The position numbers were made by a program, and so were the translations under genes. The notes below the pieces were generated by a model. That model saw only the letters and a program-made list of their open reading frames with translations. It was not told the origin of the DNA and ran no database searches. Positions 18,409 to 48,293 of a stretch of DNA of 64,000 nucleotides are shown piece by piece. This stretch comes from a virus (taxonomy: Duplodnaviria > Heunggongvirae > Uroviricota > Caudoviricetes). Where the stretch lies: the IMG/VR virus record IMGVR_UViG_3300037510_000569, positions 62,732 through 126,731 of that record; one strand, written 5' to 3'. The stretch's first letter is position 1, and each line of letters opens with the position of its first letter.

Positions 18409-21400
18409 GTGCTGCGCGAACCCGTTTTCGAGCCGATCGAGCAAGCGGCTGACGAGGACGATCCCGAGGGCCTGCTTGGCACCGCGGCCGGGCGTCTCCT
18501 CGAGGGTGCCGCCCACAGCGGTGCGATGGTCGCGCTCTACCCCGACGCCGCCACGGCGGCCGAGCTTGCCATCTCTGACGGCGAGGACGCCGACGAGCTC
18601 CACCTGACCCTCGCCTTCCTGGGCGAAGCGGAGAAGCTGAACCTCACGCGGGCGCTCCAGGTCGTCGCCGAGTGGGCCGCAGCCTGCCCGCCCAGCCTCT
18701 CGGGTGAGATCAGCGGCGTCGGCCAGTTCGCCACGGGTCCGGTCACCTACCTCTCAGTCGATCTGCCGGATCTCCCGCCTCTGCGCGAGCGTCTGGTCGA
18801 TGGGTTCGATGCAGCAGGGGTGCCGCCGAAGCGCGACCACGGCTTCACGCCCCACATCACGCTCGACTACGCGCGGCGCCGGCCCAAGATGGACAGGCCG
18901 ATCCCGATCCGCTTCGACCGCGCGACCCTGGCCTGGGCCGGTTCCCAGTTCAGCTTCCCGCTCGGCGTCCGCTCGGCGGTGCCCCTGCAGGAGGCCCGGA
19001 TGCTCCTGGAGGGCAAATGGGACGCGAGCCTCCACCCGCGCTGGCCGAAAGGCACCCCGCGCGCGGGCGAGTTCATGCGCGTGGGCCAGCGCTTCATCGG
19101 CTCCGACGGCAAGGAGTGGCAGATCGCCCACATCGCCGGGGGCAAGGTGATCGCCAACCGCGCCGAGGGCAAATACGCCGAGACGGAGACGGGGGTCTTC
19201 CATCCCGAGAAGGTCAAGGGCGGCAAGTCACCCCTCGAAGGCGGCGAGGAGACCCACGTCATCGCCGATGTGAAGAAAGAGGCCGCACCGCGCAAGGTCC
19301 AGGGAGGCAAGGGCAAGGGCGCGACGGTGCCGATCGTCGATCCCTACGTGGACGGGTCAAGCCACGACGCCTCTCTGCCGGTTCCGGCTGGCTCGAAAGT
19401 CAGCGCCGAGGAGTGGAAACGCTTCGGCAAGATCGACCAGGAGCACTACGCCGAGTTGATGCAGCGCTTCGGCAAATACAGCCCTGGCAAGGCCAAGTCG
19501 ATGATCGACGAGGCCTACAAGGACTACGAGGCCGAGATTCAGGCGATCGTGAAGAACGCCTACAGCGCCCAGTACGGCTCCTCCTCGGGCTTCACGCTGA
19601 GCCTCACCGGCGTCTTCAAGGCGATCACCGGCCAAGACAAGAAGGAGCTGGCGAAGCTCGACGCCCAGCGCCAGCGCGCCCTCGAGCTTCAGGGCCGCCA
19701 CAAAGACGTGATCGCCTGGGACCTCTACAACCGCACGCGCTCCCCTGACGTGGCGGTCTTCCACAAGTCCAACGACCCGCCGAGCTACTGGCAGGAGTTC
19801 ATCCAGGGCAACCGGCCGGTGATGTCGGGGCTGTCGCAGTCGTTCAACTTCGGCGCGAACTTCGGCTTCGGCTCGAACACGCTGGCGACCCCGCTGGCGA
19901 TCCGCCACGTCCTGATGTCCTCCTACTCCGCCCAGCCGATCCCCGGTCAGACCCACTTCGCCGGCGAGCTCGAGATCAGCGTCGCCGAGCAGCTCAAGAT
20001 CGACAACCGCTCGATCACCTTTTCGCTGCACGACATCACCGCCAACCAGAAAAAGTGGCTGATGGGAGTCACCAAGGCACCCACCGGCGGGGACACCGTA
20101 GAGCGCTTCAAGGAAGCGCTGCAGTCCGGCGAGATGCTGCCGACCCCGCCCGCCCCGCCGGACATTCAGATGCAGGGGGAGGGGCAGAAGCTCTGGATCG
20201 ATCCGCCGCCGGAGGCCGCCGATTACATCGAGCGCTTCGCCGACAAACTGCCGGCGCAGCAGGGGTCTCCGCTGGACCCCGGCAAACTCGACAAGAAAGG
20301 TCCGTGGGCCTTCAAGGATGCGGGCGGCTTGCCGAAAGCGACCGTCGCCAAGGAGTCCGAATACAAGCCCGGCGACTACATGCTGGGGCTGAAGGGCACG
20401 CTCTACATCGTCGTCGAGGACCCCGGCGACCCGACCGGCTTCGGCTTGCGCTACGTCAAGATCGAGAACGGCAAGTTCAGCGGGGAGTCCTACAACTTCG
20501 AGGGCGGCGGCGGCAATCAGTACTTCAAGCTCAGCGCCCACTACGAGCTCCCCGACCCCCACAAAGAAGCGAAAGCATCCGACCTCTTCGACCCGCACGC
20601 CTGGGTCAACGGCGAGAAAGAGAAGTTCGTCGGCAAGCTGGAGCCGGGCGACAAGTTCAAGGTCAACGGCAGCCCCTACGAGGTCAAAGCCCAGCTGAGC
20701 GGCGCCCAGACCCAGATCACCGACCTCACCAGCGGCAAGGTCGGCACGATCAACACCGACTACAAGACCCATGTCCTGGTGCCGAAGGAGGGCTACGTGC
20801 CCGAGGCACCCGAAGGGGAGAAGCTGGCGCCGGCCAAAGGGATGACGCTCGCCTACGACGGCACAAAGCACGTCGTGACGACGATCCTGAAGGACGGCAC
20901 CGTCAAGGCGAAACCGACCGGCGGCGGCAAAACGGTGGCGATCGCAGCAGACGATCCTGAGCTGGACAACCTCTATGACCCAACCGCCCACAAGATCGGG
21001 GCCAAAATCAAGGCCGGCGACCTCGCCGTCGGCCAGCTCTTCCACGGCGGCCGCGGTTCCACGCAGCGCCCCTACGTCATCACGGGCGCGGAGGGCAACA
21101 AGGTCACCTGGCGATCGCTGGACACTGGCGAGGAGGGCATCTTCACCAAGGCCAAGCAGGTCCGACTGCTCGATGACGCGGAAGCGCCAGAGCCGGAGGC
21201 AGAGCAGCCGAGCGTCGAGCCGATCTCGCACGACCAACTCAAGCCGGGGGACTCAACGACGATCTCCAACTTGAAGGCGGGCGACTTCTTCTCGGTCGAT
21301 GGCGAAGTCTTTAACGTGGTCTGGGAGCCGCCGACGCTCGAGGACAACGCCGGCGTGGCCAAGGTGATGCCATCAGGCGAGATCGGCGCGGGGAGCAGCG

Positions 21401-22713
21401 AGGGCGCTTACCCGGACAAGCTCGTCACCTACACGGGCACTGCGCCGCCGCTACCCGCCACCGATATGCCCGAGGGCGGATTCCCCGACCTAGTGGCCGA
21501 GGGCGGATTTGACCCCTACAAGTCGAAGTACGGCAGCGGCGGCAAATACACCCACGACAAGCTCGGCGAAATGGTCCCCGGCACGATCTTCCGCGACAAG
21601 GGCGGCAAGCTCTGGAAGATCAAGGAGGCCGACCACGCCGTCATCGTCACCGATGGCAATGTCCTCTACACCGCCGACGCTTCGCTGCGCGGGCGGGTCG
21701 TCCAAGCGGAGTTCGTCGACACGACCGGCCCGGTCAAGGGCCCGCACGCCGATCCTCAAGAGGTCGCCGCAGCGGAGGGCTTGGCCCCGAACAGCAAGGG
21801 CCTGACGATGGCTGATCTGCCAGCCGGTGCGACCGTCTTGGTCAACGGCGAGGTCCAAGTGGTCAAGGCGCCCGCCGAGCCCGGCGACGAGGTGAGCGCG
21901 CTGGCTGCTTCCACCGAACTCGCAGACGGAGGCGAGAACCTTCTGGGTCCGGCGATCATCCCCGATCAGATCAAGCTGCCACCGAAGGTGAAATCGTTGG
22001 GAGCCCTCAAGGAAGGCGACACCTTCGCAGGCGCGGACGGTAAGCAGCACATCGTCGTAGCCAAGTCCGTCGATGGCGACGTAGTCGTTAAGACGCCAGG
22101 AGGTCAGCTGTGGAAGCTCCCGCCCTCGACCCCGCGCGACGCGGTCGACGCCGGTGTCGATGGTGGCCTCGCTGCGCCGCCGAAACCGGCACCCCCACCA
22201 GGTGATTTGAAAGTCGCCGACCTCGAGGACGGCGCGGTATTCATGGGTGCAGGGGGCGAGCTCAATACGGTCGTCGCCAAGACGGTTGACGGCGGGATCG
22301 TCGTGATGAAGGGCGACAAGCCCGGCGGCGAGATGACGACCCTCCCCGGCACCGCGGTCATCAAGGCAAGCCAAGTCGATGTGGAAGCCGAGGGCGGCGT
22401 AGCGGGTATCCCGTCCGAGGGCGAGTGGAGCGAGGCAGTGCAGCAGGCTCTCGGCGAAGCAGGGGTCACGATGGAGGAGGTCCCGGTGGCGAGTGGGATC
22501 GAGGGCTACAAGTCCAAATGGGGCTCTGGCGGCAAGTACCAGCACTACATGCTGAGCGAGCTCGAGCCCGGCGCCGTCTTCGTCGACAAGCAGGGCAACA
22601 GCTACACCGTCGTCGGCGGCGGGCCGAAGGGGTCGATCCTGGTGCTCGGCTCAGCCAGCGGCCTGCTCAGCCTCGCGCCGGCGGGCCTGCGCGCGAAACG
22701 CCTCGAAAGCTGA
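18409..22713 (+). CDS. giant 1434-aa multidomain protein: N-terminal 2H phosphoesterase (LigT/CPDase-like), putative R-S-ExE ADP-ribosyltransferase region, then many repeats of a roughly 40-aa small beta domain
   Basis: Two HxTx motifs (HLTLAF and HITLDY) about 85 aa apart; YNRTRS...SGLSQSF...AGELEIS spaced like ART R / STS / ExE; repeats of L(K/E)xGDxF..G..Y.VV...DG.V.V and GYKSK(Y/W)GSGGKY. Confidence 0.7.
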   Translation: MLREPVFEPIEQAADEDDPEGLLGTAAGRLLEGAAHSGAMVALYPDAATAAELAISDGEDADELHLTLAFLGEAEKLNLTRALQVVAEWAAACPPSLSGEISGVGQFATGPVTYLSVDLPDLPPLRERLVDGFDAAGVPPKRDHGFTPHITLDYARRRPKMDRPIPIRFDRATLAWAGSQFSFPLGVRSAVPLQEARMLLEGKWDASLHPRWPKGTPRAGEFMRVGQRFIGSDGKEWQIAHIAGGKVIANRAEGKYAETETGVFHPEKVKGGKSPLEGGEETHVIADVKKEAAPRKVQGGKGKGATVPIVDPYVDGSSHDASLPVPAGSKVSAEEWKRFGKIDQEHYAELMQRFGKYSPGKAKSMIDEAYKDYEAEIQAIVKNAYSAQYGSSSGFTLSLTGVFKAITGQDKKELAKLDAQRQRALELQGRHKDVIAWDLYNRTRSPDVAVFHKSNDPPSYWQEFIQGNRPVMSGLSQSFNFGANFGFGSNTLATPLAIRHVLMSSYSAQPIPGQTHFAGELEISVAEQLKIDNRSITFSLHDITANQKKWLMGVTKAPTGGDTVERFKEALQSGEMLPTPPAPPDIQMQGEGQKLWIDPPPEAADYIERFADKLPAQQGSPLDPGKLDKKGPWAFKDAGGLPKATVAKESEYKPGDYMLGLKGTLYIVVEDPGDPTGFGLRYVKIENGKFSGESYNFEGGGGNQYFKLSAHYELPDPHKEAKASDLFDPHAWVNGEKEKFVGKLEPGDKFKVNGSPYEVKAQLSGAQTQITDLTSGKVGTINTDYKTHVLVPKEGYVPEAPEGEKLAPAKGMTLAYDGTKHVVTTILKDGTVKAKPTGGGKTVAIAADDPELDNLYDPTAHKIGAKIKAGDLAVGQLFHGGRGSTQRPYVITGAEGNKVTWRSLDTGEEGIFTKAKQVRLLDDAEAPEPEAEQPSVEPISHDQLKPGDSTTISNLKAGDFFSVDGEVFNVVWEPPTLEDNAGVAKVMPSGEIGAGSSEGAYPDKLVTYTGTAPPLPATDMPEGGFPDLVAEGGFDPYKSKYGSGGKYTHDKLGEMVPGTIFRDKGGKLWKIKEADHAVIVTDGNVLYTADASLRGRVVQAEFVDTTGPVKGPHADPQEVAAAEGLAPNSKGLTMADLPAGATVLVNGEVQVVKAPAEPGDEVSALAASTELADGGENLLGPAIIPDQIKLPPKVKSLGALKEGDTFAGADGKQHIVVAKSVDGDVVVKTPGGQLWKLPPSTPRDAVDAGVDGGLAAPPKPAPPPGDLKVADLEDGAVFMGAGGELNTVVAKTVDGGIVVMKGDKPGGEMTTLPGTAVIKASQVDVEAEGGVAGIPSEGEWSEAVQQALGEAGVTMEEVPVASGIEGYKSKWGSGGKYQHYMLSELEPGAVFVDKQGNSYTVVGGGPKGSILVLGSASGLLSLAPAGLRAKRLES

Positions 22714-32752: not shown

Positions 32753-32773
32753 CGCCACAGACGCAAGCCGAGT

Positions 32774-33622: not shown

Positions 33623-33628
33623 CGGGAA

Positions 33629-33661
33629 CCTCCTTGGTCGGGTTGTGCCAACAAAGTTAGC
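33629..33661 (-). promoter_or_regulatory. full start-associated motif copy (minus strand) before ku
   Basis: Reverse complement reads ctaactttgttggcacaacccgaccaaggagg. Confidence 0.55.
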
Positions 33662-33685
33662 ACAGAATCGCCTAGTGCAGCAGCG

Positions 33686-34099
33686 TTAGGCAGAGCGCTT
33701 TAGCTCGCGCAGGCGGGCTGTCGCCTGCTCTCGGTAGGCAAGCTCGGAATCCGTGAGCTTACGACCACCAGAGCCATAAGTGAGGATCAGGTCTGCCAGA
33801 ACTCCAGCCTCCGCCTTCTTAACGACCAGATAGGGCTGTATCGCGTCAAGTACCTCACGAACACCCTTAGCCCCCTGCACTGACCAAGCGTAAACAGGAC
33901 GGTGCTCGCCCTTGCCTTTGCAGCGCTGGTAGACAGACCCGCCGAATATGCCTTGAAGCTTCTTCAGTGCAGCGAGGTTCGTATTGCCGACCGTGATTCG
34001 TGGCATATGCCGCTGGCGAGAAGCCAGATTCCGATGAACATCGAGACATCCCTCACCGTCGATGAAGCCAGCGGCCCATGCGCGGTCAGTCTCTCGCAT
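33686..34099 (-). CDS. LAGLIDADG homing endonuclease (single-motif type)
   Basis: AWAAGFIDGEGC motif; ATG at 34099 chosen, or alternatively TTG at 34162; sits between the divergent ku and ligase genes. Confidence 0.65.
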   Translation of the reverse strand: MRETDRAWAAGFIDGEGCLDVHRNLASRQRHMPRITVGNTNLAALKKLQGIFGGSVYQRCKGKGEHRPVYAWSVQGAKGVREVLDAIQPYLVVKKAEAGVLADLILTYGSGGRKLTDSELAYREQATARLRELKRSA

Positions 34100-34137
34100 G
34101 GTCAGGCAGCCTACTGGCTGCGATCCAGCCAAATAAG

Positions 34138-34167
34138 TGCTAACTTTCTTGGCACCGACCAAGGGGA
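34138..34167 (+). promoter_or_regulatory. full start-associated motif copy before the ligase gene
   Basis: gctaactttcttggcaccgaccaagggga, 4 nt before the ATG. Confidence 0.55.
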
Positions 34168-34171
34168 AGCA

Positions 34172-35095
34172 ATGAGCAAGACCGTAGCAATTCCTGCCGC
34201 ACCGACTTCACCGATTGATCTCGTCCAGAAGGCTGAGACCAAACAAGGAATGAACCCAGAGCAGTTAGGCGACCACTGGACGATGGAGCCCAAGTGGGAC
34301 GGCTGGCGCTTGCTCGCCCATGTGACTGAGACCGGCGTGCATCTCTACACGCCCACCGGCAACGTCCAGGACGGGAAGCTCCTGGAGATAGAGGCCGAGC
34401 TTTCCCGGCTCCCGGCTGGAACCTGGATCGACGGCGAGGCGGTCGCCCTGATGCTCGACGGCGACATGGTGGTCCATGAATGGAACGCGGTCCAGAAATG
34501 CCTCGGTTGCTCTGACCTCACCAAGGCTCGCGCCCGTTCTGGCCCGATCACTTTCGTCGCCTTCGACCTGATCTCCCACGCAGACATCGACGCGCGCTCA
34601 CTGCCCTTCGTCAAGCGGCGGGACCTGCTGGAGCGCGTCTTGGACCAGCACTCCTGGGAGCGGGTGATCCTGACCCCTCAGGTCGCGCCGACCGACGAGC
34701 ACCTCGCCTCCTTCATCGCCCAGGGCTTCGAGGGCGGCGTTGCGAAGTCCTTGACCGCCCCCTACGCGAGCGGCCAGCGGGGACAGGGGCAGATCAAGTT
34801 CAAGCCTCAGGCGACTGACGACTTCGTCGTGATGGGCTTCAAAGAGGGTGAGAACGGCTTCACTGGGTTGATCGGCGCGATCGTCTTTGGCGCCTACGAG
34901 AACGGGGAGCTTGTCGAACGCGGCCGGTGCTCAGGGATGGATATGGCAACGCGCGTGCGGATTTCCAAGGACCGTGACAGCTACCTCGGCAATGTGCTGG
35001 AGGTCGCCCACATGGGTTTCATCGGGGCTGGCTACCGCCACCCACAATTCAAGCGTTGGCGCCCAGACAAAGCGCCAGCGGAATGTGTCGTCTAG
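34172..35095 (+). CDS. ATP-dependent DNA ligase (LigD ligase-domain type)
   Basis: Motif I EPKWDGWR (KxDGxR), DGEAV (III), FVAFDL, EGGVAK (IV), QIKFK (V); 307 aa. Confidence 0.8.
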   Translation: MSKTVAIPAAPTSPIDLVQKAETKQGMNPEQLGDHWTMEPKWDGWRLLAHVTETGVHLYTPTGNVQDGKLLEIEAELSRLPAGTWIDGEAVALMLDGDMVVHEWNAVQKCLGCSDLTKARARSGPITFVAFDLISHADIDARSLPFVKRRDLLERVLDQHSWERVILTPQVAPTDEHLASFIAQGFEGGVAKSLTAPYASGQRGQGQIKFKPQATDDFVVMGFKEGENGFTGLIGAIVFGAYENGELVERGRCSGMDMATRVRISKDRDSYLGNVLEVAHMGFIGAGYRHPQFKRWRPDKAPAECVV

Positions 35096-35108
35096 CGAAA
35101 GGAGCACC

Positions 35109-35453
35109 GTGGCTGCCGATCTCATGGCAGGACTGGATCGTCTTATCCAAGAAGCAGAAGGCGATCTGAACACCCTCAAGGAGGCCAAGCTGAGCCTCCA
35201 GGGGCGCAAACGAGCAGGGCGGAAGAAAGGTGCGCCGAAGGCGCGCAAACGCGAGACCCGACGCGGGCGCAAGACGCGGGCGGTGGAGGCACTCCAGATG
35301 ATCGAGGAGAAGCCAGGCATCGGGGCGACCGAGATCGCCAAAACGATGAAGATCAAGTCGAACTACCTCTACCGAGTCCTCGGCAAGCTGGAGGACGAAG
35401 GGAAGATCAAGAAGAGCGGCCCCCGCTCCTACGAGCCGGTTCCGACGGCCTGA
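35109..35453 (+). CDS. basic protein with C-terminal winged-helix HTH, putative DNA-binding regulator
   Basis: GTG after aaaggag; KRAGRKKGAPKARKR then GIGATEIAKTMKIKSNYLYRVLGKLEDEGKI. Confidence 0.5.
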   Translation: MAADLMAGLDRLIQEAEGDLNTLKEAKLSLQGRKRAGRKKGAPKARKRETRRGRKTRAVEALQMIEEKPGIGATEIAKTMKIKSNYLYRVLGKLEDEGKIKKSGPRSYEPVPTA

Positions 35454-35947
35454 TGCCACCGCAGTCCGAGCCACCCACTCCCGCGAGCGACCTCCAGGCG
35501 AAACTCGCCAAGGACATCGAGCGCGTGGGGTGGGTGGCTATCGGGGTGATGCCGACCGAGGACGATCCGATCGACCCCTTCACCTACACGCTCAACCTCT
35601 GGCGCAAGTTCGACCACCCCGAGCTGATCGTGACCGGGATGCGTCAGGAGGTCGCCCACTCCATGATCGCTGGTTTCATCTCACGGATCGAACAGGGCGA
35701 TCGCTTCGACACCAGCCTCGATCATCCCAAAGCGCTGCAGGGCCAGGGAGACAAGACCTACACCGCCGCGATACGGCCGGTCACGCCGACACAGCGAGAC
35801 GAGCATCTGCGCTTCGCAGACTGGTGGAACGGCGGCGAGGACTTTCCAGCGATGCAGATCGTCTGGCCGGACCCCGCTGGCCTCTTTCCCTGGGAGGACG
35901 GCTACGATCGCCGCTATCTCCAGCCTCTGCTGACCGACGATGGATGA
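35453..35947 (+). CDS. hypothetical protein (DUF4262-like)
   Basis: 164-aa ORF; IVWPDPAGLFPWEDGYD motif. Confidence 0.45.
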   Translation: MPPQSEPPTPASDLQAKLAKDIERVGWVAIGVMPTEDDPIDPFTYTLNLWRKFDHPELIVTGMRQEVAHSMIAGFISRIEQGDRFDTSLDHPKALQGQGDKTYTAAIRPVTPTQRDEHLRFADWWNGGEDFPAMQIVWPDPAGLFPWEDGYDRRYLQPLLTDDG

Positions 35948-36167
35948 CGAGCAACCGACAGAGGTCCTCGAACACCAGCTACCCGCCCACAACGAGCGGG
36001 ACCCGCTGAGCCGAATCGCCATCGCCGTCGAGCTCATGGCGGCATCTGTGATCGAGAGCACGACGATCTTGCGCGCGATGGCCGCGCGCGACCCCCATGT
36101 CAGCGAGGAGGTCCGGCGTCTTGAACGAGAGCGCCACAAGCCGACTCCGCCGCCTCCGCACCGCTAG
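35940..36167 (+). CDS. hypothetical protein
   Basis: ATGGATGA overlap; 75 aa. Confidence 0.4.
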   Translation: MDDEQPTEVLEHQLPAHNERDPLSRIAIAVELMAASVIESTTILRAMAARDPHVSEEVRRLERERHKPTPPPPHR

Positions 36168-36234
36168 GTGCAGCGTGCAGCGAAAATCCGCTTGGGGGTG
36201 GTAGCCGTAGGCGGGGCTACGCTTCGCAGCAACG

Positions 36235-39200
36235 ATGGCCGCCTCGCCAACGAATCGCACGCTGCAGGAGGTCAGCTCGTCGGTCTACCCCAAGCTCGAG
36301 CGCAAACCGGGGAAGCAGAACTGGGTTGACTACGCCGGCGGTCTGCCGTCCTACATCGAACGGATCGCCAAACACCTCCACTACGAGAAGGGCAAAGACA
36401 TCTCGACGGCGATCGCGATCGCCGTCAACACGGTCAAGAAGTGGGCGACGGGAGTCAACCACAACGGCTCGAAACTGAAGCCGGACACCGTTGCCAAGGC
36501 GCAGGCCGCCGTGGCGGAGTGGGAGGCGAAGAAGGCCAAGGCGAAAGGCAAGAGCCTGGCCGAGGCCGCTTACAACGAAGCGCCAGGCGGGATCGAGATG
36601 AGCGCGGAGGACCGCGCCTCGGTCGTTGGCACCTTCTCCCACCGCCTGACGCTCCTGGAGGGCTTCGCGCTGAACCTCAAGGGCGCCTCGACCAAAGGGA
36701 AGAGTGCGGCGCTCGACAATGCGATCGCTCTGCTGGAGGGCCGCGAGGTCAAGCTGGCGATCGGCGGCGGCAACGCCGACTCGCGCGCTCTCGCTCGCGC
36801 TCAGTCAGCGCTCGGCAAGGAGGCCGCGGAACTGCGCTCGGTGCTCGAGGCCTTCGAAGGTCCTCAGGTCAGAGCCGCTCGCCGCGATGTCAAGCAGCAG
36901 GCGAAAGGCCGAAACGGTCAGGCGGTCTTCGACGAATCCAAACACCCTCGCGCCGGGAAGGGCCAGCCGACCGGCGGGCAGTTCATCCGCAAGGGCGCCA
37001 CCGGCAGCGAGGTCAAGGGCATCCAGCGCGCGCTCGGGATCAAAGCCGACGGGAAGTTCGGCAACAAAACCAAGTCGCGCGTCGAAGAGTTCCAGCGCAA
37101 CCACGGCCTGACGGTCGACGGCGTCGTCGGCGCTCAGACCGCTGGCGCTCTCCACGGAACCGAAGCGGTGCCAGGCCCGCTCCTCTCCCACCACCGAGGG
37201 CGTCTGCGCAAGATCAGTCAGAAAGTCGAGAAGCAGTACTCGAAGGCATCGTTGGCGGCGGCCGACGCCAAGGAAAAACGCGAAAACAAGGCGCGCAAAG
37301 CCCGCAAAGAAGCTAGAAAAGAAGCAGAATCTAAGGCGAAATCTTCGTCTTCTTCGTCGTCCTCCTCCTCAGCCACGGGTACGGACAGTGGTGTCGGCTC
37401 GACGCTCGGCCCGGACTCAAGCCTGCCCGAGAAAGTCGTGCAGCTGATCCAGCGCAAACTCGGCATCGACACCAGCGGCTCCTACGACGAAGCGACCGAG
37501 AAGGCGATCCGCAAGTTCCAGCGCGACCACGGCCTGCTCGTCGACGGCATCGTCGGCACCCAGACCCTCGCCGCGCTGCGTGGCGATGAATCCCCGCCGG
37601 AGCCGGGTGCCTTCAGTGAGTCCGACTGGAGTTGGCTGACCCAGCACCAGGCCGGCGGCCAGCGCGAAAGGCGGCATGAGCGTCAGAAGGAGCATCGCCA
37701 GGAGCGTCGCCAGCGCCAGGAAGAAAAGCAGGAAGAACGCGAACTGCGGGTCGAAGAGGCGATGGTCAAGGACGACTTCGTGCGGCGCTACGGCGCCGGG
37801 ATGACTGGTGCGCCCGACGAGGCGACCGGCCACCTTCAGCGCCGCCTCACCGAGCTTGGCTACGAGCCGGGTGCTGACGACGGCCGCTACGGAGAGAAGA
37901 CCAAAGGCGCGGTCTCGAAGTTCCAGGGCGACCACGGCCTCAAAGAGGACGGCGAGGTCGGTCACGACACGAAGCTCGCGTTGCGCGGCACCGACCCCGA
38001 GGAGGTCGCCCGTCGGCGCACCAGCGAGGAGTCGGAGACCTCGGAGGAGAAGTCCGACGAGAAAAATGCTCAGAAACCTGTTCAGAAAAGTGACCAGGAA
38101 CCTGCTGAGGGCGAGCAGGAGGAGAAGGAGCCCAGCGAACGCCACAGCCTCGCCGGCGCAGTCCTCACCAAGGGCGCGGGCGTTGATGCCGAGGACGCCG
38201 ATCCTTCGGTCGAACAGATGCAGAGCATCATCGGCACCGAGGTCGATGGGCGCTTCGGCCCCGAGACCGAGAAGAAGCTGAAGTCGGTTCAGCGCCGCTA
38301 CGGGCTGAAGGCCGACGGCGTCGTAGGGCCCAAGACCGGCCGCCTGCTCGACCGCATGGCCTCCAAGCACAAGCCCGACCCGAAGAAGATGAAGGAGGCT
38401 GCTCTCGATGCCGCGATCCTCGATCGCATGGAGGCCGCCGTCGCGGGCGACAACACCGCCTTCATCAGAGCACGCGCTCGAGAGGAGCACGCGCGCCAGA
38501 ACCTCGCCGAGGCTTCCCTGCGCGGCATCGGCGGCGATCTCGTCCGCAGCTTCTACCGCCTCGACGACGGCACCTTTGCGCCGAAAGGGATGGGCCGCAT
38601 CCTCAAGCCGGGTGAGGAGATCAAGCTCCCCCACCGGAACGGCGAGGGCTCAGTCCGCGCTCGGATCGAACCGGGCGGCAACAAAGGCCGCGGCATCGCC
38701 AGGATTCTCGACGGCCCCGACGAGGGCCAGCTGGCGGCCGTGCGGACCGCTGCGCCAGCGGGGACCAGCCCACGCGGCTTCCCGCGGCCGCTCTCGAGGA
38801 AGCCCGCGCCACTGCCGCCAGGTGACCCCAGCAGCGGGGCCAAAGTGCAAGAGGTCAAATCGCAGAACTACCGCGACGCGATCAACCACCACATCACCAA
38901 GGGCGAGGACCACGCCGTTCAGGACCACCTGGACGACATGGAGAGCGATCACCAGTGGTCCGAACGTCAGGGCTACGGCAAGGCGATCGCCAACTACGAC
39001 GCGGCCAAGTCCGCAGGCGAGCACTTCCTGACCCACGGCGAGCCCCCTCAGCGGGAGTTGACCGGAACCGACGAGATCGCACGCGCGATGCGCGGCGGCG
39101 GGGAGACGATCACCACTCCAGCCGGGACTTTCAAGATCAGCGAGGACGAGGGGGGCTGGTATGCGCTCGACACCAGTGATCCAGAATCCGAGCACCTGGT

Positions 39201-40641
39201 AGACCAGACCCGGCACGGTCTGGCCCGCCAGCTCAGCGGGCCGCAGCGAGCACCGATCGACTTCACCGCCAAGTCCGACGCCGAGCTCGACCAGCTCCAG
39301 GCCTCGATCAGCGACGAGAGCGGCGTGGTCCGCACCAACGGCCGCGACCGGAGCATCTTCCAGGCGATCACGAAAGAGCGCAAGCGCCGCGCTGAGCGCG
39401 CATACCGCGACGCCAAGAGCGACAAGGAGCGCGCCAGCCTGGCCGACCTCGTGGCCCAGTGGACCGGCCGCAGGCCGCAGGGGGCGCCGCAACCTCAGTA
39501 CTCGCCGCCGGAGGGCTACGCGCCCAACGAGAGCGCGACCCAGATCAAAGAGATGGGACCTGGCGACACCTTCTACATCGGCAAATACAGCACGCCGTTC
39601 GTCTGGCACAAGCAGGTCGGACCAGAGTTCATCGTCGCCAAGCCGGTCGGCGGCGGCAAAGCGAAGCCCTTCCACATGGAGATGGCGCCGACCTTCCTCG
39701 GGCCGCACGATGACAGCTACCCGAATCAGCCCGCCAGCGCCAGCGCGCAGGAGCCGACGACGGCTGGTGACGACGACCTCTTCGACAAGCTGAAAGCGAG
39801 CATCAAGCCGAAAACCGGGCCGTTCGGAGAAGGCGAGTCCGGTCCTCCGCTGGGAGAGGTTCCGTCCAAGCCGAAGAGTCCAGCGCGATCGCCGTCGGGC
39901 AACCTGCGCAACTTCAAGGCGATGAGCGACAAAAAGCTCTACGACCTCGCGGTGGAGATGAAGCAGCACCCCGACGACACCGACGCGGTCAAAGCAATCG
40001 TCGCCGAGATGCAAGTTAGGAGCGCATCGCCGACAAGCAACGTCACTGGCGAGCACCCGGAGAAAGAGTCGAAGCCGTCGCTGCCGAAAACCCACGAGCC
40101 GCCGAAAGTCAAGTCCGCCGATGAGAAGATCGCTGCGGCTTGGGGCGCATACCAGACGAAGAAAGCGGAGTTCGACGCTCTTCCCGATGACGCCGACAAA
40201 GCAACCCGCGCGAAACTTGCCTCGCAGGTCCGCGCGGCGAAGTTCCGCATCAAGCGCGTCGGGGGAGATCCCAATAAGCCGCCGTCGGCTGCGCCCTCAC
40301 CACCGAAGAAGAAGGCGAAACCGGCCCCGAAACCGAAGCCCAAGGAGGTCGCCAAACCGGCACGAGAGACCCCGAAGCCGCCCGCAGCAGACTTCGAGGA
40401 CCTGGTCGCCCAAGGCGTTGAGAAGGAACACGCCAAAAAAGCCGAGATGGTCGCCTCTCAGGCTGCGATGAAACTTGGCCCCGACTGGGGCTCCAAACAG
40501 ATCAGCGCGGCGCTCGACCAGCTAGAGGAAAAGGGTCTTTCCTTCGATCGTGAGCAGGAGTCCCCGGACACGCTGGCCGCGGTCATCAAGGCCGCTGGAC
40601 TGAACCCAGCCGATCTGAAGACGATCGGCACGACGAGTTAG
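36235..40641 (+). CDS. giant 1468-aa protein with four peptidoglycan-binding (PG_binding_1-like) domains and long charged low-complexity linkers; candidate virion-associated cell-wall-binding protein
   Basis: Four repeats of the form GSEVKGIQRALGIKADGKFGNKTKSRVEEFQRNHGLTVDGVVGAQT; SSSSSSSSS tract; HPRAGKGQPTGGQF motif shared with the 18409 giant protein. Confidence 0.7.
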   Translation: MAASPTNRTLQEVSSSVYPKLERKPGKQNWVDYAGGLPSYIERIAKHLHYEKGKDISTAIAIAVNTVKKWATGVNHNGSKLKPDTVAKAQAAVAEWEAKKAKAKGKSLAEAAYNEAPGGIEMSAEDRASVVGTFSHRLTLLEGFALNLKGASTKGKSAALDNAIALLEGREVKLAIGGGNADSRALARAQSALGKEAAELRSVLEAFEGPQVRAARRDVKQQAKGRNGQAVFDESKHPRAGKGQPTGGQFIRKGATGSEVKGIQRALGIKADGKFGNKTKSRVEEFQRNHGLTVDGVVGAQTAGALHGTEAVPGPLLSHHRGRLRKISQKVEKQYSKASLAAADAKEKRENKARKARKEARKEAESKAKSSSSSSSSSSATGTDSGVGSTLGPDSSLPEKVVQLIQRKLGIDTSGSYDEATEKAIRKFQRDHGLLVDGIVGTQTLAALRGDESPPEPGAFSESDWSWLTQHQAGGQRERRHERQKEHRQERRQRQEEKQEERELRVEEAMVKDDFVRRYGAGMTGAPDEATGHLQRRLTELGYEPGADDGRYGEKTKGAVSKFQGDHGLKEDGEVGHDTKLALRGTDPEEVARRRTSEESETSEEKSDEKNAQKPVQKSDQEPAEGEQEEKEPSERHSLAGAVLTKGAGVDAEDADPSVEQMQSIIGTEVDGRFGPETEKKLKSVQRRYGLKADGVVGPKTGRLLDRMASKHKPDPKKMKEAALDAAILDRMEAAVAGDNTAFIRARAREEHARQNLAEASLRGIGGDLVRSFYRLDDGTFAPKGMGRILKPGEEIKLPHRNGEGSVRARIEPGGNKGRGIARILDGPDEGQLAAVRTAAPAGTSPRGFPRPLSRKPAPLPPGDPSSGAKVQEVKSQNYRDAINHHITKGEDHAVQDHLDDMESDHQWSERQGYGKAIANYDAAKSAGEHFLTHGEPPQRELTGTDEIARAMRGGGETITTPAGTFKISEDEGGWYALDTSDPESEHLVDQTRHGLARQLSGPQRAPIDFTAKSDAELDQLQASISDESGVVRTNGRDRSIFQAITKERKRRAERAYRDAKSDKERASLADLVAQWTGRRPQGAPQPQYSPPEGYAPNESATQIKEMGPGDTFYIGKYSTPFVWHKQVGPEFIVAKPVGGGKAKPFHMEMAPTFLGPHDDSYPNQPASASAQEPTTAGDDDLFDKLKASIKPKTGPFGEGESGPPLGEVPSKPKSPARSPSGNLRNFKAMSDKKLYDLAVEMKQHPDDTDAVKAIVAEMQVRSASPTSNVTGEHPEKESKPSLPKTHEPPKVKSADEKIAAAWGAYQTKKAEFDALPDDADKATRAKLASQVRAAKFRIKRVGGDPNKPPSAAPSPPKKKAKPAPKPKPKEVAKPARETPKPPAADFEDLVAQGVEKEHAKKAEMVASQAAMKLGPDWGSKQISAALDQLEEKGLSFDREQESPDTLAAVIKAAGLNPADLKTIGTTS

Positions 40642-40648
40642 GAGAACG

Positions 40649-40969
40649 ATGAGCTTCAACACCAGCGACAGCCGGAGCTTCACCACAAAAGACGCCGACT
40701 CCTCGCCTGAGGTCTTCAAGAAGGGCAACACCAAGACCGCGACTCTGCTCGTGCGCAACACAGGCGAAAAAACCGCGACCTACAAAGTCGAGGGCTCGAT
40801 CGACGGGGAACATTTCGTCGACCTGGTGGAAGCCGCGGACCTCGCCAAAGAAAAATCGAAAGTCCACTCGATCACCGACTACTGGCCGATCCTGCGGATC
40901 ACCGGCAAGTCAAAAGAAGCCGGGAAACCGACGACGGTGGCGATCGCCATCGCCTCGATCGAGGCCTAG
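40649..40969 (+). CDS. hypothetical protein, first gene of the structural block
   Basis: 106-aa ORF directly after the giant gene. Confidence 0.45.
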   Translation: MSFNTSDSRSFTTKDADSSPEVFKKGNTKTATLLVRNTGEKTATYKVEGSIDGEHFVDLVEAADLAKEKSKVHSITDYWPILRITGKSKEAGKPTTVAIAIASIEA

Positions 40970-40975
40970 TCCAGG

Positions 40976-41020
40976 AAAAGTCAATCCGGGGGGGACCCTC
41001 TGCTGCGCTGCTACGGTCGG
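40976..41020 (+). promoter_or_regulatory. conserved structural-operon motif, copy 1
   Basis: aaaagtcaatccgggggggaccctctgctgcgctgctac immediately before the ATG at 41024. Confidence 0.5.
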
Positions 41021-41023
41021 CGC

Positions 41024-42370
41024 ATGACGACCGCAGCAGTGCCAAAGGATGCCCTCCGTCTCCAAGAGGCGATCGCCTCCCGGCCCGGCGCTCTACAGCA
41101 GGACGGAGAGCACGCGGGGACGGTCATCATCGACGTAATCCGTCCTACGGTTGGCCTCGGTCAGGGTCGCCATCTCTACGAGGCCAAGATGCTCGAGCAG
41201 TACGCCGGCATCTTCGGCGAGCACGTCGAGGAGGGCGAGAAGGTCCGGGGTTGGAAGATGTACGCCGACCACGAGGACCCGAAGGCGATCAAAGCCCGCA
41301 ATGGCCTGCCCCGTCCGATCGCCCACACCGGAGGCCGCATCGAGGAGTCCTGGTGGGACCCCGATGTTCCCGCGGAAGGCCGATTCGGCCAGGGCGCCGT
41401 TCGCGCCCGAGTCCGCCCCGTCGGTCTGGTGCGGCGGCTGCTCGAAGAGGACCCGCAAATCCTCGAGGCGAGCATCAACGCGCAGGCGACCGCTGTGCGC
41501 CCCGACCTTCACGATGGCCAGCAGGTCTGGGTCGTTGAGGGAATCGAGGGCGGCGGCTCGGTCGATTGGGTCTCCGAAGGCGGCGCCGGCGGCAAGGTCG
41601 TAGAGCTGATGGAGGCAATGGTCCGTGAGATCGGTGCCGACGACGAGCACGATCCGCTCTCCGTTCTGGAGTGCCTGACCGACAACGAACTTGGCGACTA
41701 CATCGCCAGCAAACGCTCGGGGCTGCTAGAGGCTGCCGCCGGCGAGGAATCCACCACGCCTGAAGGAGGCGAGATGGCAGAAGTTACCCCCGAGGACATT
41801 CAGGAGGCTCTCCGCGATCCCGAGAGCGGCGTACGCGAGTACGTCGGCGAGCTCGTAGAGGCTGGCCTGAGTGAGCGCGGAGAGGTGATCCGGGCCGAGG
41901 CGAAAGCCGAAGCCGATCGCCAGGTTCAGCTCCGCGACATGCGCGACGAAGCGCACCGCATGATCGAGGCCACCGATCTGCCGGACTCCTGGAAGAACAA
42001 GCTCCGAGGCGAGTTCTCTCTCGTAGAGGGCAAGCCGACGGCGAAGCTCGACCAGGTGGACGAGGTCGACGACAACGGCGAGGTCACGAAGGGCGCTGCG
42101 GCGTTCCTGGCCGAGGCGGTCGAGGCAACGATCACCGAGCAGCGCGAGCTGCTCGCCGAGGCAGCTCCCACCCGCATCGAGGGTCAGGGCGCAGGCTCGA
42201 GCGAGGAGGGCGCCAAGAGCGCCGAGAGCGGCACCCCCTACTGGAAAGAGTTCCTCCAGGAGGCGGGCGTCCAGGACCCCGACAGCGTGTACGGCGGCGC
42301 GGCGAAGGCGGAGGTCGAGGAGGAGAAATCCTCCGAGTCCGAGGCCGAGGCTGCGGCGGCGGCGGCGTAG
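41024..42370 (+). CDS. putative scaffolding protein, possibly a prohead protease-scaffold fusion
   Basis: 448 aa; acidic coiled-coil C-terminal half ending EAEAAAAAA; located just before the decoration and major capsid genes. Confidence 0.45.
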   Translation: MTTAAVPKDALRLQEAIASRPGALQQDGEHAGTVIIDVIRPTVGLGQGRHLYEAKMLEQYAGIFGEHVEEGEKVRGWKMYADHEDPKAIKARNGLPRPIAHTGGRIEESWWDPDVPAEGRFGQGAVRARVRPVGLVRRLLEEDPQILEASINAQATAVRPDLHDGQQVWVVEGIEGGGSVDWVSEGGAGGKVVELMEAMVREIGADDEHDPLSVLECLTDNELGDYIASKRSGLLEAAAGEESTTPEGGEMAEVTPEDIQEALRDPESGVREYVGELVEAGLSERGEVIRAEAKAEADRQVQLRDMRDEAHRMIEATDLPDSWKNKLRGEFSLVEGKPTAKLDQVDEVDDNGEVTKGAAAFLAEAVEATITEQRELLAEAAPTRIEGQGAGSSEEGAKSAESGTPYWKEFLQEAGVQDPDSVYGGAAKAEVEEEKSSESEAEAAAAAA

Positions 42371-42388
42371 GGGAGAAGGAGCTACCCA

Positions 42389-42778
42389 ATGCCTTACAAG
42401 AGGCCGGGAGAGGGCGTCTACGTCACGAACGAAACCGGGGGCAATCTGACCCACGGCCAGCCGTTCGTAGACAAAACCAAAGCGTTCGTCGGCGTTGCTG
42501 TGAAGCAGAAGGCCGTCGGCTTCGCGGAGGGAATGGCCGCCCAGGCCGTCATCCCTGACGACGAGGAGTTCTTCCTCATCACCAAGGGTGTCGTGCAGGT
42601 CGCAGAGGTCTCCGGCTTCGCAGTCGGCGACGACGTCTGGATCGACCCCACCGACAACAAACTCACCGAGACCGCCGAAAAAAACGTCAAGTTCGGCCGG
42701 GTCGTCGAGATCGAGAACGAACGCGGTACGCCCGCCAACAAGGTGCGTATCGACCTCGACGCCAAGGACAGCTTCTAA
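42389..42778 (+). CDS. small structural protein, possible head decoration protein (DUF2190-like position)
   Basis: 129 aa, beta-rich, located between the scaffold and the major capsid gene. Confidence 0.4.
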   Translation: MPYKRPGEGVYVTNETGGNLTHGQPFVDKTKAFVGVAVKQKAVGFAEGMAAQAVIPDDEEFFLITKGVVQVAEVSGFAVGDDVWIDPTDNKLTETAEKNVKFGRVVEIENERGTPANKVRIDLDAKDSF

Positions 42779-42811
42779 GCCGTCCGGCTAGAGGAGAAGG
42801 AGACCAAGAGA

Positions 42812-43885
42812 ATGTCCAAATACGGTGAGTATCGCCGTCCCGTTCTCCTCCTGGAGGCGTACAAGGACTGGTACGCCGACCGCATCGGCGGTCTTCAGGA
42901 GGGTAGCGTGGAGCTGCGAGAGGCCGCTTCAAAGGCGGACTTCCCGGAGTTCCTCTTCGGGCCGATTCGGACGAGCGTCTACCAGGGGTACACGCGGGTC
43001 ACGCCGCAGTACCGCCGGTATGCACGGATCGAGAACGCCACGGACTTCCGCGAGCGCCGCATCAAAGGCCTCTGGGGTCTGACGGGCATCGGCTACGTCG
43101 GGGACCACGGCGAGTACCCCGAAATGCAGCGGACCGAGCGCCCCTCGGCCACGCTGGTGATCGACACCTACGGGGCCGTCTACGCGATCACGCGGCAGAC
43201 GATCATCAACGACGAATCGGGGGACCTGCTCAGCAAAAACCCCGACGACATGGGCTACGCGGCAGCGCAGTTCGTCACCGAGGCGATCATCGCCTACATC
43301 GAGGGCAACCCGACGGCGCCGGACGGCAACCCCGTGTTCTCCGAAGCTCGCGGCAACCAGATCACGAGCCCGCTGAGCGAGGACTCCCTCGCCTCGGCGA
43401 TCTCGACGATGGAAATCCAGCGAGACGGTGACGGTCGTCGCATCGTCGTCCGCCCCCAGGTCCTCGCGGTCCAGAGCGTCCGCATGGAGCTGATCGCCAA
43501 CCGGATTCTCCGCTCACAGGAGACCGGCACCAACGCCGCCTACACGGGCGCCGCGGGTGCGGGCTCGAACGTGTTCGACAAGGGCACGATCAACCCGCTC
43601 GCCGGCATCCTGCCGCAGGGCGCCGTCGTCCGCGACCCCTACTGGTCGGACGCGAACGACTGGTACCTGTTCGCCAACCCCAGCGACGTTCCGGCCTTCG
43701 CGGTCGGCTTCCTGGGCGGACGCGAGGAGCCTCAGGTGTTCAAGAAGAACAGCGAGACCTCCTCGGCCCTGAGCGGTCCCGACCCCTACACCTGGGAGCT
43801 CGACTCGGTCGACTTCAAGGTCCGCCTGGACTTCGGCGTAGGAAACGTCGATCCGGCGGGTGCGTTCCGATCGGTGGTCGCCTAG
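42812..43885 (+). CDS. major capsid protein
   Basis: 357 aa with strong RBS ggagaaggag; position and size; composition typical of capsid proteins. Confidence 0.65.
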   Translation: MSKYGEYRRPVLLLEAYKDWYADRIGGLQEGSVELREAASKADFPEFLFGPIRTSVYQGYTRVTPQYRRYARIENATDFRERRIKGLWGLTGIGYVGDHGEYPEMQRTERPSATLVIDTYGAVYAITRQTIINDESGDLLSKNPDDMGYAAAQFVTEAIIAYIEGNPTAPDGNPVFSEARGNQITSPLSEDSLASAISTMEIQRDGDGRRIVVRPQVLAVQSVRMELIANRILRSQETGTNAAYTGAAGAGSNVFDKGTINPLAGILPQGAVVRDPYWSDANDWYLFANPSDVPAFAVGFLGGREEPQVFKKNSETSSALSGPDPYTWELDSVDFKVRLDFGVGNVDPAGAFRSVVA

Positions 43886-44404
43886 ATGCCGGCCGGGAAC
43901 GACGCACAGGCTGCCTACAGCGAGCTCACCGATCGCTTCGGTGCCGGTCACGGCCGCGCCGAGGACCTGATCGAGGCCCGCCGGGATGCCTACCCCGAGG
44001 AGCTGCGCGCTGCGCAGCTCCGGGGGGTAGACGAGAACGCCACGGCGCTGATCGACGACGCTGAAGTCGCCGATGCCGCCGGGGTAGACGAGGCAGCGAT
44101 CCAGTCCAAGGCAGTCCGCGGCGATGCGGTAATCGCCGTGGTCGAAGGCGACGATGGCCGCACGGCGAAGGTCATGCTGCCCCTGTCGGTCTTCGAGGAC
44201 GTGGCGGAGGAGGCTGGTCAGGAAGACAGCGGCCCCACCGCGATCTTCGCCTCGGACGCCGCGGAGGAGTTCGCCAACTCGAAGAACCTGACGGCAGAGA
44301 CCATCGCGGTCTACCTGCCCGATGGCGGTTCGGGCAAGGACGGCTCCTTCACCAAGTCCGATGTCGCCAAGGCGGCAGAGGCAAAGGCGGCGGCCGCGGT
44401 CTAG
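43886..44404 (+). CDS. hypothetical structural protein
   Basis: ATG immediately after the capsid-gene stop; acidic, Ala-rich. Confidence 0.4.
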   Translation: MPAGNDAQAAYSELTDRFGAGHGRAEDLIEARRDAYPEELRAAQLRGVDENATALIDDAEVADAAGVDEAAIQSKAVRGDAVIAVVEGDDGRTAKVMLPLSVFEDVAEEAGQEDSGPTAIFASDAAEEFANSKNLTAETIAVYLPDGGSGKDGSFTKSDVAKAAEAKAAAAV

Positions 44405-46811: not shown

Positions 46812-48293
46812 ATGCCCTTCTCGAAATCAAACCGCCCCACGCTGCCGGACAGCTACTTCAACTTCGAAACGACCCCGACCACGGTCATCCCGCCGGCAGC
46901 GGGCTCGACGGTCGCAGTCCCGATCATCAACGACTGGGGTCCTTTCAAGGAGGCGCACCTAGTCTCCTCCTTCGCGCAGTACCAGGCGCTCTACGGCTAC
47001 TCCGACGACACGCCCGGCTACCTCGCGGTCAAGCAGGCGTTCCTCGGCGAGGGCCTGGCCGGCCGCCTCGGCGCGGGCGCGGTGCTCGTCTACCGCTTCG
47101 GCGACACCGGCGCTGCGAAGGCGACGAAAACGCTGAAAAACACCGAGGGCTCCCCGGCAGACGCGATCAAAGTCAGCGCCAAATACGAGGGCACGCGAGG
47201 CAACGACCTGCGGATCACCACCCGCGACAACGCCGCCGACGCGACCAAGGACGACTTCGTTCTGCTCGACGGCACCGCCGTCCTGGAGACCTACACCTAC
47301 CTCGAGGCCGACATTGCCGACCTCGTGGCGAAGATCAACAAACGGTCCAACTGGATCACGGCCGAACTGAAAAAAGATGGCACCAAACTGGCGACCGTCA
47401 CCAGCACCGCGATGACCGGCGGCGACGACGGCAACGAACCCGTCGCCGAAGACTGGACCGACGTGATGGATCAGATCGCCCTCGAGCGCTTCGGGATCTT
47501 CGCGCCCTACAACCTCACCGACGAATCGATCATCGCTGCGATCCAGGCCTGGGTCCGCGACCAGAACGACAACAAGAACAAGCGCTTCATGGCTGTCGTC
47601 GGCGGCAAAATCGGCGAGGAAGTCGAAGAAGCCAACGAACGCTCCGAAGCGATCGCCGACCCCGAAGTCGTCAACATCGGCGGCGGCACCTACCGCGACG
47701 AGGACCTCGGTCCCGGCGGAGCGGAAATCGAACTTTCGACCGCACAGCTCGCGCCGCGGATCGCTGGAATCCTCGCCGCCAAGGGCGAGTACGCAGCGCT
47801 CACCTACGCGCGTCTGGCCGGTCTGTCGATCGTCAAAGGCGCGACCGACGCGGAGATCGCGGTCGCCTACGACGCGGGCACCGTCGTCCTGGCTCGGGAC
47901 GACGATCCGGATGCGCCGACGCACATCAAAGTCGGTCACTCGACCTGGACGGAAGCCGACGCGGAGGCCGAAGACCTCAAGCCCTACATCATCTACCGCG
48001 AGCCGAAGTACGTCCGCACGATGCACGGCATCCAGTCGGACCTCAGTGCCTACTTCCGCAGGGAAATCCTCGGACGCCGGCCGGTCAACGACGACACGCG
48101 GGACGCGGTCATCTCGGAGGCCAAGCGCCTCCTGGACGAGCGTCAGCGCCTCGGCGTGATCCAGCCCGGATGGAAGGTGGGGATCGACCAGGACCCGCCG
48201 CCTTCCGACGATGACGAGTTCGTCGCCCTGATCGTCGAACTCAAGTTCGGTCGCGCCCTCAAGCAGGTGTTCGTCTCGCTGAAGATCAGCTAG
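46812..48293 (+). CDS. tail sheath protein
   Basis: 493 aa, immediately upstream of the tube gene; composition and motifs typical of contractile-tail sheath proteins. Confidence 0.7.
   Translation: MPFSKSNRPTLPDSYFNFETTPTTVIPPAAGSTVAVPIINDWGPFKEAHLVSSFAQYQALYGYSDDTPGYLAVKQAFLGEGLAGRLGAGAVLVYRFGDTGAAKATKTLKNTEGSPADAIKVSAKYEGTRGNDLRITTRDNAADATKDDFVLLDGTAVLETYTYLEADIADLVAKINKRSNWITAELKKDGTKLATVTSTAMTGGDDGNEPVAEDWTDVMDQIALERFGIFAPYNLTDESIIAAIQAWVRDQNDNKNKRFMAVVGGKIGEEVEEANERSEAIADPEVVNIGGGTYRDEDLGPGGAEIELSTAQLAPRIAGILAAKGEYAALTYARLAGLSIVKGATDAEIAVAYDAGTVVLARDDDPDAPTHIKVGHSTWTEADAEAEDLKPYIIYREPKYVRTMHGIQSDLSAYFRREILGRRPVNDDTRDAVISEAKRLLDERQRLGVIQPGWKVGIDQDPPPSDDDEFVALIVELKFGRALKQVFVSLKIS

Follow-up and report, generated by a model that had tools for sequence, protein, structure and literature searches.

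A giant protein with four peptidoglycan-binding domains, encoded beside the head genes of an uncultured contractile-tailed phage, is a candidate head-packaged wall binder

We analyzed a window of 64,000 nucleotides (positions 62,732 to 126,731 of the IMG/VR virus record IMGVR_UViG_3300037510_000569) and focused on one gene, a plus-strand open reading frame (ORF) at 36235..40641 that starts with ATG and encodes a protein of 1468 amino acids (aa), hereafter the giant. We judged the gene to be real, and its GC content at the three codon positions (0.67/0.48/0.83) matches that of the other genes in this 65% GC window. The product has a mass of 158 kDa, an isoelectric point (pI) of 9.05 and no cysteine, and neither a signal peptide nor a transmembrane segment was predicted in its 1468 residues. 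There are no notable tandem repeats inside the gene. A prediction made earlier from the nucleotide sequence alone (the original prediction) had placed the ORF upstream of the capsid genes, and this is where it lies: after a gap of 8 nt, it is followed by a DUF6385 gene, a gene for a 448-aa protein, and genes matching Phage_cement_2 and Phage_capsid_4. We found an identical protein (P0001) on two contigs, one of 134,735 bp from a JGI metagenome and one of 35.5 kb from Logan. Neither the giant nor the capsid protein nor the tail sheath has a close relative among GenBank phages, and the phage records held no full-length relative of the giant, the only matches being of its peptidoglycan (PG)-binding parts to endolysins. 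We conclude that the source is an uncultured contractile-tailed phage of roughly 135 kb. Its host is probably actinobacterial, judging from GC content and from the distribution of a domain described below.

The giant contains four PG_binding_1 domains (PF01471; Pfam E = 8.2e-55, 183.3 bits against a gathering cut-off of 23), in agreement with the original prediction. Domains whose peptidoglycan binding has been confirmed experimentally, in KZ144-type endolysins, have a repeated D-G-(hydrophobic)2-G-K/N-G/N-T consensus (PMC3352856). In the giant, D-G-x-hydrophobic-G-x-x-T is kept in seven of the eight half-sites of the four domains. The giant is a member of the PG_binding_1 domain family by these matches, and peptidoglycan binding itself is predicted. 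Its top PHROG matches are all endolysin families.

Despite the likeness to endolysins, no enzyme was recognized. Scans of the giant against Pfam, PHROGs and NCBIfam recovered the PG-binding parts only and no catalytic domain, and six segments outside these parts, each scanned singly against PHROGs, gave nothing at E < 0.01. Searches of PDB sequences with the N- and C-terminal parts returned no meaningful match. AlphaFold2, run with homologue alignments, produced models of residues 1-260 (mean predicted local distance difference test score (pLDDT) 83) and 715-1468 (mean 77.5; predicted template modeling score 0.34), and in these models Foldseek detected no catalytic fold and no PDB match at E <= 0.001 for either terminus. 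Against BFVD, the N-terminal model had one match, a 1282-aa viral protein that is probably a homologue. We also considered a protease or hydrolase hidden in the C-terminal half and rejected it, as the predicted folded units are too short and had zero matches. The absence of a recognizable catalytic domain, claimed in the original prediction, was borne out by all of these searches, and the hidden hydrolase or MuF-like domain that it had proposed looking for was not found; Phage_Mu_F is absent over the whole giant at E <= 1 in Pfam. One NCBIfam model, TIGR03979 (HxsA, a His-Xaa-Ser repeat protein), matches residues 360-448 (37312-37578) with an E-value of 3.9e-14, below the model cut-off. This resemblance probably comes from the composition of a Ser-rich linker together with the shared PG-binding domain.

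The description of the rest of the protein as low-complexity turned out to be overstated. Outside the PG-binding region, pLDDT is at least 70 at 723 of the 1014 modeled residues, and an alignment of full-length relatives together with the models identified at least seven additional small conserved modules besides the PG-binding domains. The giant is built like beads on a string: an N-terminal domain that we call module A, a helical region, a short motif containing HPR, the four PG_binding_1 domains spaced by charged or Ser-rich linkers, two beta modules, and four short helical modules. Apart from two small beta modules, the AlphaFold2 models contain only helical units, all of them short. We mapped the C-terminal modules by local BLAST. 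Helical module M3 is present twice in another collected protein (P0027), and M5 also forms the C-terminus of two more (P0007 and P0008). Foldseek matched the C-terminal model to SH3/Tudor/KOW/FeoA-like structures in the PDB (probability 0.84-0.89, E > 0.1), which is a likeness of fold class and not homology, and the output does not say which beta module these matches cover. An SH3/Tudor/KOW-like fold class can be put forward, weakly and from the model, for beta module 1. Beta module 2 resembles residues 792-841 of a second giant protein in the window, the first giant by position (Table 1), although this weak similarity (E = 2.2) is alone not significant.

Module A gave the most informative comparison with other phage proteins. 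It covers 96 residues (NWVxxAGGLPxYIERIAKHLHYEKG...AIAIAVNTVKKW...AVAEWEAKKA) with a net charge of +8, and its model is confidently helical (pLDDT 88-95; helices 39-52, 56-71 and 83-114). Of the first 80 homologues, 58 carry the module at 55-83% identity; these are otherwise unrelated giants of 800-2400 aa, and they have it at the N-terminus, internally or at the C-terminus. We built a profile from 40 sequences, with the giant as the first sequence of the alignment; N29, W30, G36, L37, P38, R43, I60, A92 and W96 are invariant, and the giant fits the profile. At E <= 1e-3, the profile found 1,946 representative clusters among 1.84 billion representatives (50% identity clusters), and module A had zero matches in the copies of Pfam, PHROGs, NCBIfam and PDB that we searched. 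By these sequence comparisons, module A is a widespread but undescribed domain.

We scanned 44 long members of the module A family for partner domains. The commonest was PG_binding_1 (23 of 44), and the others were BRCT (5), LigT/2H (4), S78/S78_2 prohead protease (4) and Acb1 (1). Further giants have LPD29 or a zeta toxin alongside module A, and a 630-aa short form (L009) consists of module A and two PG-binding domains. In one protein (P0068), Peptidase_S78 occupies residues 21-166 and module A residues 1212-1303. Bacterial genomes, taken one per species, contained module A at eight loci, all in Actinomycetota. Four of the six complete ORFs at these loci fuse the module to Phage_Mu_F (L010, 37.8 bits; L011, 35.5; L013, 67.1; L015, 29.4; cut-off 29.6), and these fusions are prophage proteins of Streptomyces, Streptacidiphilus and Acidimicrobiales. 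In Microbacterium phage Hendrix, the 1233-aa gp55 carries module A and is encoded between the portal and major head genes. Magritte gp11 is a solo module-A protein with its gene directly upstream of the terminase gene. Streptomyces phage Intolerant gp9, whose gene directly follows those of the portal and a protease/MuF fusion, has a weak module A match (E = 0.2, 40% identity over 50 aa). It is established that proteins of the MuF/SPP1 gp7 kind are parts of the head and that the procapsid interior is where the prohead protease works (PMC5512222). Because module A is fused to MuF and to the S78 prohead protease, it travels with head-internal proteins, and these fusions are the strongest, though indirect, evidence that the giant may be packaged.

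The HPR motif lies directly before PG-binding domain 1 in a segment predicted to be unstructured, and its core in the giant is FDESKHPRAGKGQPTGGQF (residues 232-250). The original prediction had noticed that the giant encoded from 18409, the first giant, shares this motif, and the two copies do correspond, FDESKHPRAGKGQPTGGQF in one and WDASLHPRWPKGTPRAGEF in the other. Among 214 collected proteins, the pattern [FW][DN][PE]x[LK]HPRx(2-12)Gx[FW] has 117 instances compared with 0.4 expected from composition, with one to three copies per protein. We conclude that the HPR motif is a genuine short linear motif. It could signal packaging, mark a protease site or bind a partner as a peptide, and a literature search for it gave nothing relevant. 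In the first giant the motif follows the LigT/2H domain and precedes a stretch that looks folded by eye (residues ~330-560) and then many GD.F...G....VV repeats, which may be SH3-like. The first giant fits the 2H-bearing polyvalent proteins of PMC5512222, and PHROGs ties its N-terminus to phrog_18402, annotated 'head maturation protease'.

Table 1. Positions of the modules of the giant, of the first giant and of the downstream genes in the window.
Feature	Coordinates	Strand	Basis or remark
Module A, aa 10-105 (96 aa), helical	36262..36549	+	Homologue alignment and model
Helical region B, aa 124-222	36604..36900	+	Kept only in closer relatives; pLDDT 85-97
HPR short linear motif, aa 232-255, FDESKHPRAGKGQPTGGQFIRKG	36928..36999	+	Directly before PG-binding domain 1; segment predicted unstructured
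PG_binding_1 domain 1, aa 256-310	37000..37164	+	Pfam and half-site motif
PG_binding_1 domain 2, aa 397-450, after Lys/Ala-rich and poly-Ser linker	37423..37584	+	Pfam and half-site motif
PG_binding_1 domain 3, aa 525-585, after Arg/Gln/Glu-rich linker	37807..37989	+	Pfam and half-site motif
PG_binding_1 domain 4, aa 650-707, after acidic linker	38182..38355	+	Pfam and half-site motif
Small beta module 1, aa 773-840, FYRLDDGTFAPKG...	38551..38754	+	Predicted strands; common to ~15 other giants
Small beta module 2, aa 1081-1160, PPEGYAPN...GDTFY.GK...AKPVGGGKAKPFH	39475..39714	+	Local BLAST, model
Helical module M3, aa 1214-1265, SPARS..GNLRNFKAMSD.KL...	39874..40029	+	Alignment, local BLAST, model
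Helical module M4, aa 1295-1345, ...QVRAAKFRIKRVGGDP	40117..40269	+	Alignment, local BLAST, model
C-terminal helical module M5, aa 1386-1468	40390..40638	+	Alignment, local BLAST, model
First giant, 1434 aa, N-terminal LigT/2H phosphoesterase	18409..22713	+	Domain search
HPR motif of the first giant, WDASLHPRWPKGTPRAGEF	19018..19074	+	Directly after LigT/2H domain
DUF6385 gene, 106 aa	40649..40969	+	8 nt downstream of the giant
448-aa head-module protein, no family	41024..42370	+	Position, composition
Cement (decoration) protein, Phage_cement_2	42389..42778	+	Domain match
HK97-fold major capsid protein, Phage_capsid_4	42812..43885	+	Domain match
Tail sheath	46812..48293		Downstream of the giant
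Tail assembly chaperone, PF08890	49171..49848		Gene before tape-measure gene
Tape-measure protein, 1414 aa	50160..54404	+	Follows tail assembly chaperone gene

Beyond the head genes, tail tube and baseplate genes also lie downstream of the giant, and genes for an ATP-dependent DNA ligase, Ku, a nucleotidyltransferase and a DUF4262 protein lie upstream. The 448-aa protein belongs to a family of at least 152 clusters without Pfam annotation, most of them from contigs of 100-135 kb. By eye, the N-terminal half of the protein appears folded, its C-terminal half is acidic and helical, and a search for a family match and a protease signature found neither. By position and composition it may be the scaffold and/or prohead protease of this lineage. 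The original prediction had located the giant just before the scaffold and capsid genes; the capsid part stands, whereas the scaffold label comes from position and composition with no family match.

The tape-measure protein has a weak SLT match near its C-terminus (E = 3e-4, just under cut-off), and its homologue in a related phage (L002, 24399 onward) has weak Peptidase_M15_3 and Phage_lysozyme2 matches. Wall cutting at entry seems, from these matches, to reside in the tape measure. We considered the giant itself as the tape-measure protein and rejected this, as that role belongs to the 1414-aa gene behind the PF08890 chaperone. A plus-strand gene at 15175-17502 was also tried as the portal and rejected: its 775-aa product consists mostly of degenerate Ala/Asp/Leu/Arg-rich repeats (…ADA..L.D.L.KA.G.KRAD…) and has no family.

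In L002, where the giant is 49% identical, the order of giant, DUF6385, ~445-aa protein, cement and capsid is kept, and a similar order was found in L018. Proximity of the giant to head genes is common but not strict. Related phages carry additional upstream giants with LigT, Tad3 or zeta-toxin domains. We detected no holin, endolysin or other lysis gene near the giant in the window or in five related loci; a position in lysis cassettes, which the original prediction had named as evidence against its proposal, was not seen at any of them. There were no plus-strand terminator-like sites at 33500-44500, all terminator-like sites being on the minus strand, and a sigma-70 promoter scan found no promoter.

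Several other features of the window were observed. Just upstream of the giant, 25163-35095 holds a cluster of nucleic-acid repair genes whose members include a Ro60/TROVE-like RNA-binding protein (phrog_850), an HNH endonuclease, an RlaP nucleotidyltransferase, Ku (minus strand) and the ATP-dependent DNA ligase. At roughly the same position, L002 encodes a 561-aa protein with TROVE and vWA_Ro60 matches, and in related phages Ku and ligase are again found close to the giant. Fifteen plus-strand tRNA genes form two arrays (3940-7728 and 12643-12890), and one more, an 89-nt tRNA-Ala predicted at 28417-28505 on the minus strand, is possibly spurious. A beta-helix (pectate-lyase-like) tail fiber or depolymerase gene occupies 59859-61643 (plus strand). 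GC content dips to 0.53 at 60001-62000 over this gene compared with ~0.65 elsewhere, which points to the recent acquisition of a receptor-binding module. Other uncultured phages encode two to four giants in a row (L007, 3587-11396; L008, 1-13943). One such run has a 1317-aa PG_binding_1 protein, an Endonuclease_7 gene and a 1131-aa protein with module A and LPD29; another has proteins of 2734 aa, 1435 aa (zeta toxin), 736 aa and 1980 aa (S78 protease). These runs suggest cassettes of interchangeable giant cargo proteins.

Taken together, these results lead us to a reading to which we give about even credence: the giant would be a head-associated protein of the polyvalent/MuF-linked type, a non-enzymatic payload that is packaged, ejected and grips the cell wall at entry. 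Packaging and injection have been predicted for polyvalent proteins (PMC5512222). Under our proposal, module A, possibly with the HPR motif, would steer the giant into the procapsid, where it would be loaded by binding a conserved head component or DNA, like proteins of the MuF/SPP1 gp7 type. The giant would then leave through the portal and tail tube together with the DNA, and exit by this route is plausible because the predicted folded units are small (~100 residues or fewer) and flexibly linked. Made in the cytoplasm without a signal peptide, it would meet peptidoglycan only at entry or at lysis. At the site of penetration, all four PG-binding domains would take hold of the thick wall of the probably actinobacterial host. 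This hold could anchor the tail tip or the DNA conduit, or keep open a hole cut by the tape measure, with the lytic domain of the tape-measure protein supplying the cutting.

For the proposal of an internal or ejected virion protein, as first put forward in the original prediction, the two lines of argument have fared differently. The fusions of module A to Phage_Mu_F in four proteins and to Peptidase_S78, and the actinophage giants encoded between portal and capsid genes, speak for it. The argument from position has weakened, since in two relatives (L017 and L019) the giant is separated from the head genes by SSB, Ku and small genes, and the giant's gene may be part of an upstream block of giants and small genes instead of the head operon. 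Other points also count against packaging and ejection. What suggests a virion location is domain fusion and the order of the genes; neither a portal nor a terminase gene could be recognized in the window, and MuF, protease and LPD domains are all missing from the giant. Module A resembles no known fold, and head targeting is a guess at its function; the helix-loop-helix shape of its model and its charge of +8 would also fit DNA binding. Our reading further assumes that a chain of 158 kDa can pass through a contractile tail tube, and that the inferred host is the right one.

The DNA-binding look of module A bears on an alternative in which the giant is an internal structural protein of the head, with a core, scaffold or DNA-organizing role, whose PG_binding_1 folds have been co-opted for protein or DNA contacts and which either stays in the head or is ejected without binding the wall. 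Its gene adjoins those of the scaffold-like 448-aa protein and the capsid, its linkers are highly charged and of low complexity in a protein of basic pI, module A is basic and helix-loop-helix-like, and the solo module-A gene of Magritte sits where the DNA-binding small terminase usually lies. We nonetheless consider a structural role unlikely, though worth keeping in mind, because seven of the eight half-sites retain the motif of confirmed peptidoglycan-binding domains and because the presence of PG_binding_1 in 23 of the 44 module-A proteins argues for selection on the canonical ligand. If the ligand is peptidoglycan, the giant could also act from outside the capsid, as a head fiber or decoration that binds exposed Gram-positive peptidoglycan and aids reversible adsorption. 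A long, flexible, multivalent protein would suit such an adhesin, the cement/decoration gene and DUF6385 are close by, and the probable host, given that module A in bacterial genomes is confined to Actinomycetota, would have an exposed wall. Yet the domains to which module A is fused (S78, MuF, LigT/2H and a zeta-toxin-type kinase) work within the head or in the host cell and not at the capsid surface, and neither Pfam nor Foldseek found the Ig-like and collagen-like domains typical of head fibers, which leaves an adhesin improbable in our view.

We see a similarly small chance that the giant is not a virion protein at all and serves as a late wall-binding accessory that, after holin action, aids or localizes lysis or tethers progeny. 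PG_binding_1 is typical of endolysins, the families of the top PHROG matches are in keeping with this, canonical endolysins likewise have no signal peptide, and the giant stands apart from the head genes in L017 and L019. Such a role is opposed by the lack of a catalytic domain in the giant, by the absence of holin and endolysin neighbors noted above, and by MuF and S78 as fusion partners of module A, which point to heads. Very improbable, in our estimate, is an injected or early counter-defense effector that occupies peptidoglycan or muropeptides against wall-linked defenses or superinfecting phages. Sister giants bear domains of anti-defense type (LigT/2H, Tad3, Acb1 and zeta toxin), and the HxsA model matches residues 360-448; HxsA is part of a host defense system in which a PG-binding effector reportedly stops phage DNA from entering (PMC13128918). 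This idea has analogy alone and no specific sequence evidence behind it, and the HxsA match is to a Ser-rich linker and a PG-binding domain.

Returning to a packaged and ejected wall binder, a wider proposal is possible, which we hold tentatively and think doubtful as it stands. Module A would be an undescribed head-targeting or cargo-loading domain of actinobacterial phages, with the HPR motif as a companion packaging or processing signal, and would load interchangeable cargos into capsids. These cargos would include proteases, 2H phosphoesterases, a zeta-toxin-type kinase, BRCT domains and PG-binding arrays. The giant would represent a new class of ejected, non-enzymatic wall anchor delivered through a contractile tail. 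If module A does load heads, it would provide a sequence handle for predicting packaged and injected giants of uncultured actinophages, and could act as a tag for putting foreign cargo in capsids. With an enzyme-free, virion-delivered wall-binding array, models of how contractile-tailed phages get through thick Gram-positive walls would gain a step that is not catalytic. The module A family is large yet unmatched in the libraries, and a bare description of the domain would already improve phage annotation.

We compared the giant with known systems. With the modular endolysins KZ144, EL188 and OBPgp279 it shares the domain family PF01471 and the half-site motif. Unlike them, it has four PF01471 copies, no catalytic domain, five to six times the length, and module A, and it lies beside the head module with DNA ligase, DUF4262 and head genes as neighbors in place of a lysis cassette. 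Virion-associated peptidoglycan hydrolases, and giant proteins of the tail or the virion interior such as phiKZ gp181, are large, linked to the virion and directed at peptidoglycan at entry, and they carry a lytic domain. The giant has none, and the sole lytic-type domain of the virion module is in the tape-measure protein. We conclude that the giant is neither an endolysin nor a virion-associated hydrolase. Literature searches on PG-binding capsid proteins turned up no description of its architecture. The ejection (pilot) proteins of podoviruses, gp14/15/16 of T7 and gp7/16/20 of P22, take the route proposed here for the giant, from the head by ejection to the envelope at the entry site (PMC8954989). 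In contrast to them, the giant belongs to a phage with a contractile tail, and we found in it no sequence similarity to them and no channel-forming or transglycosylase part.

The likeness to MuF/SPP1 gp7 proteins (Phage_Mu_F, PF04233) lies in the fusion of module A to Phage_Mu_F elsewhere, the head genes nearby and the predicted ejected role, and the difference lies in the giant having no Phage_Mu_F domain and no portal gene recognized nearby. Polyvalent proteins (Iyer, Burroughs, Anand, de Souza, Aravind 2017, PMC5512222) combine disparate, mostly enzymatic domains, whereas the giant has binding-type modules only and falls outside the strict definition. Module A is not among the domains described for polyvalent proteins, and PG-binding, LysM and SH3 terms do not occur in that paper. 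Polyvalent proteins are likewise giant, multi-domain and neighbors of phage late or head genes, and the giant agrees with them in location, immediately ahead of the genes for cement, capsid and sheath. Module A and the HPR motif recur in giants bearing LPD29, LigT/2H, zeta toxin, S78 protease and MuF, and the phage of the giant encodes a second giant with an N-terminal 2H domain.

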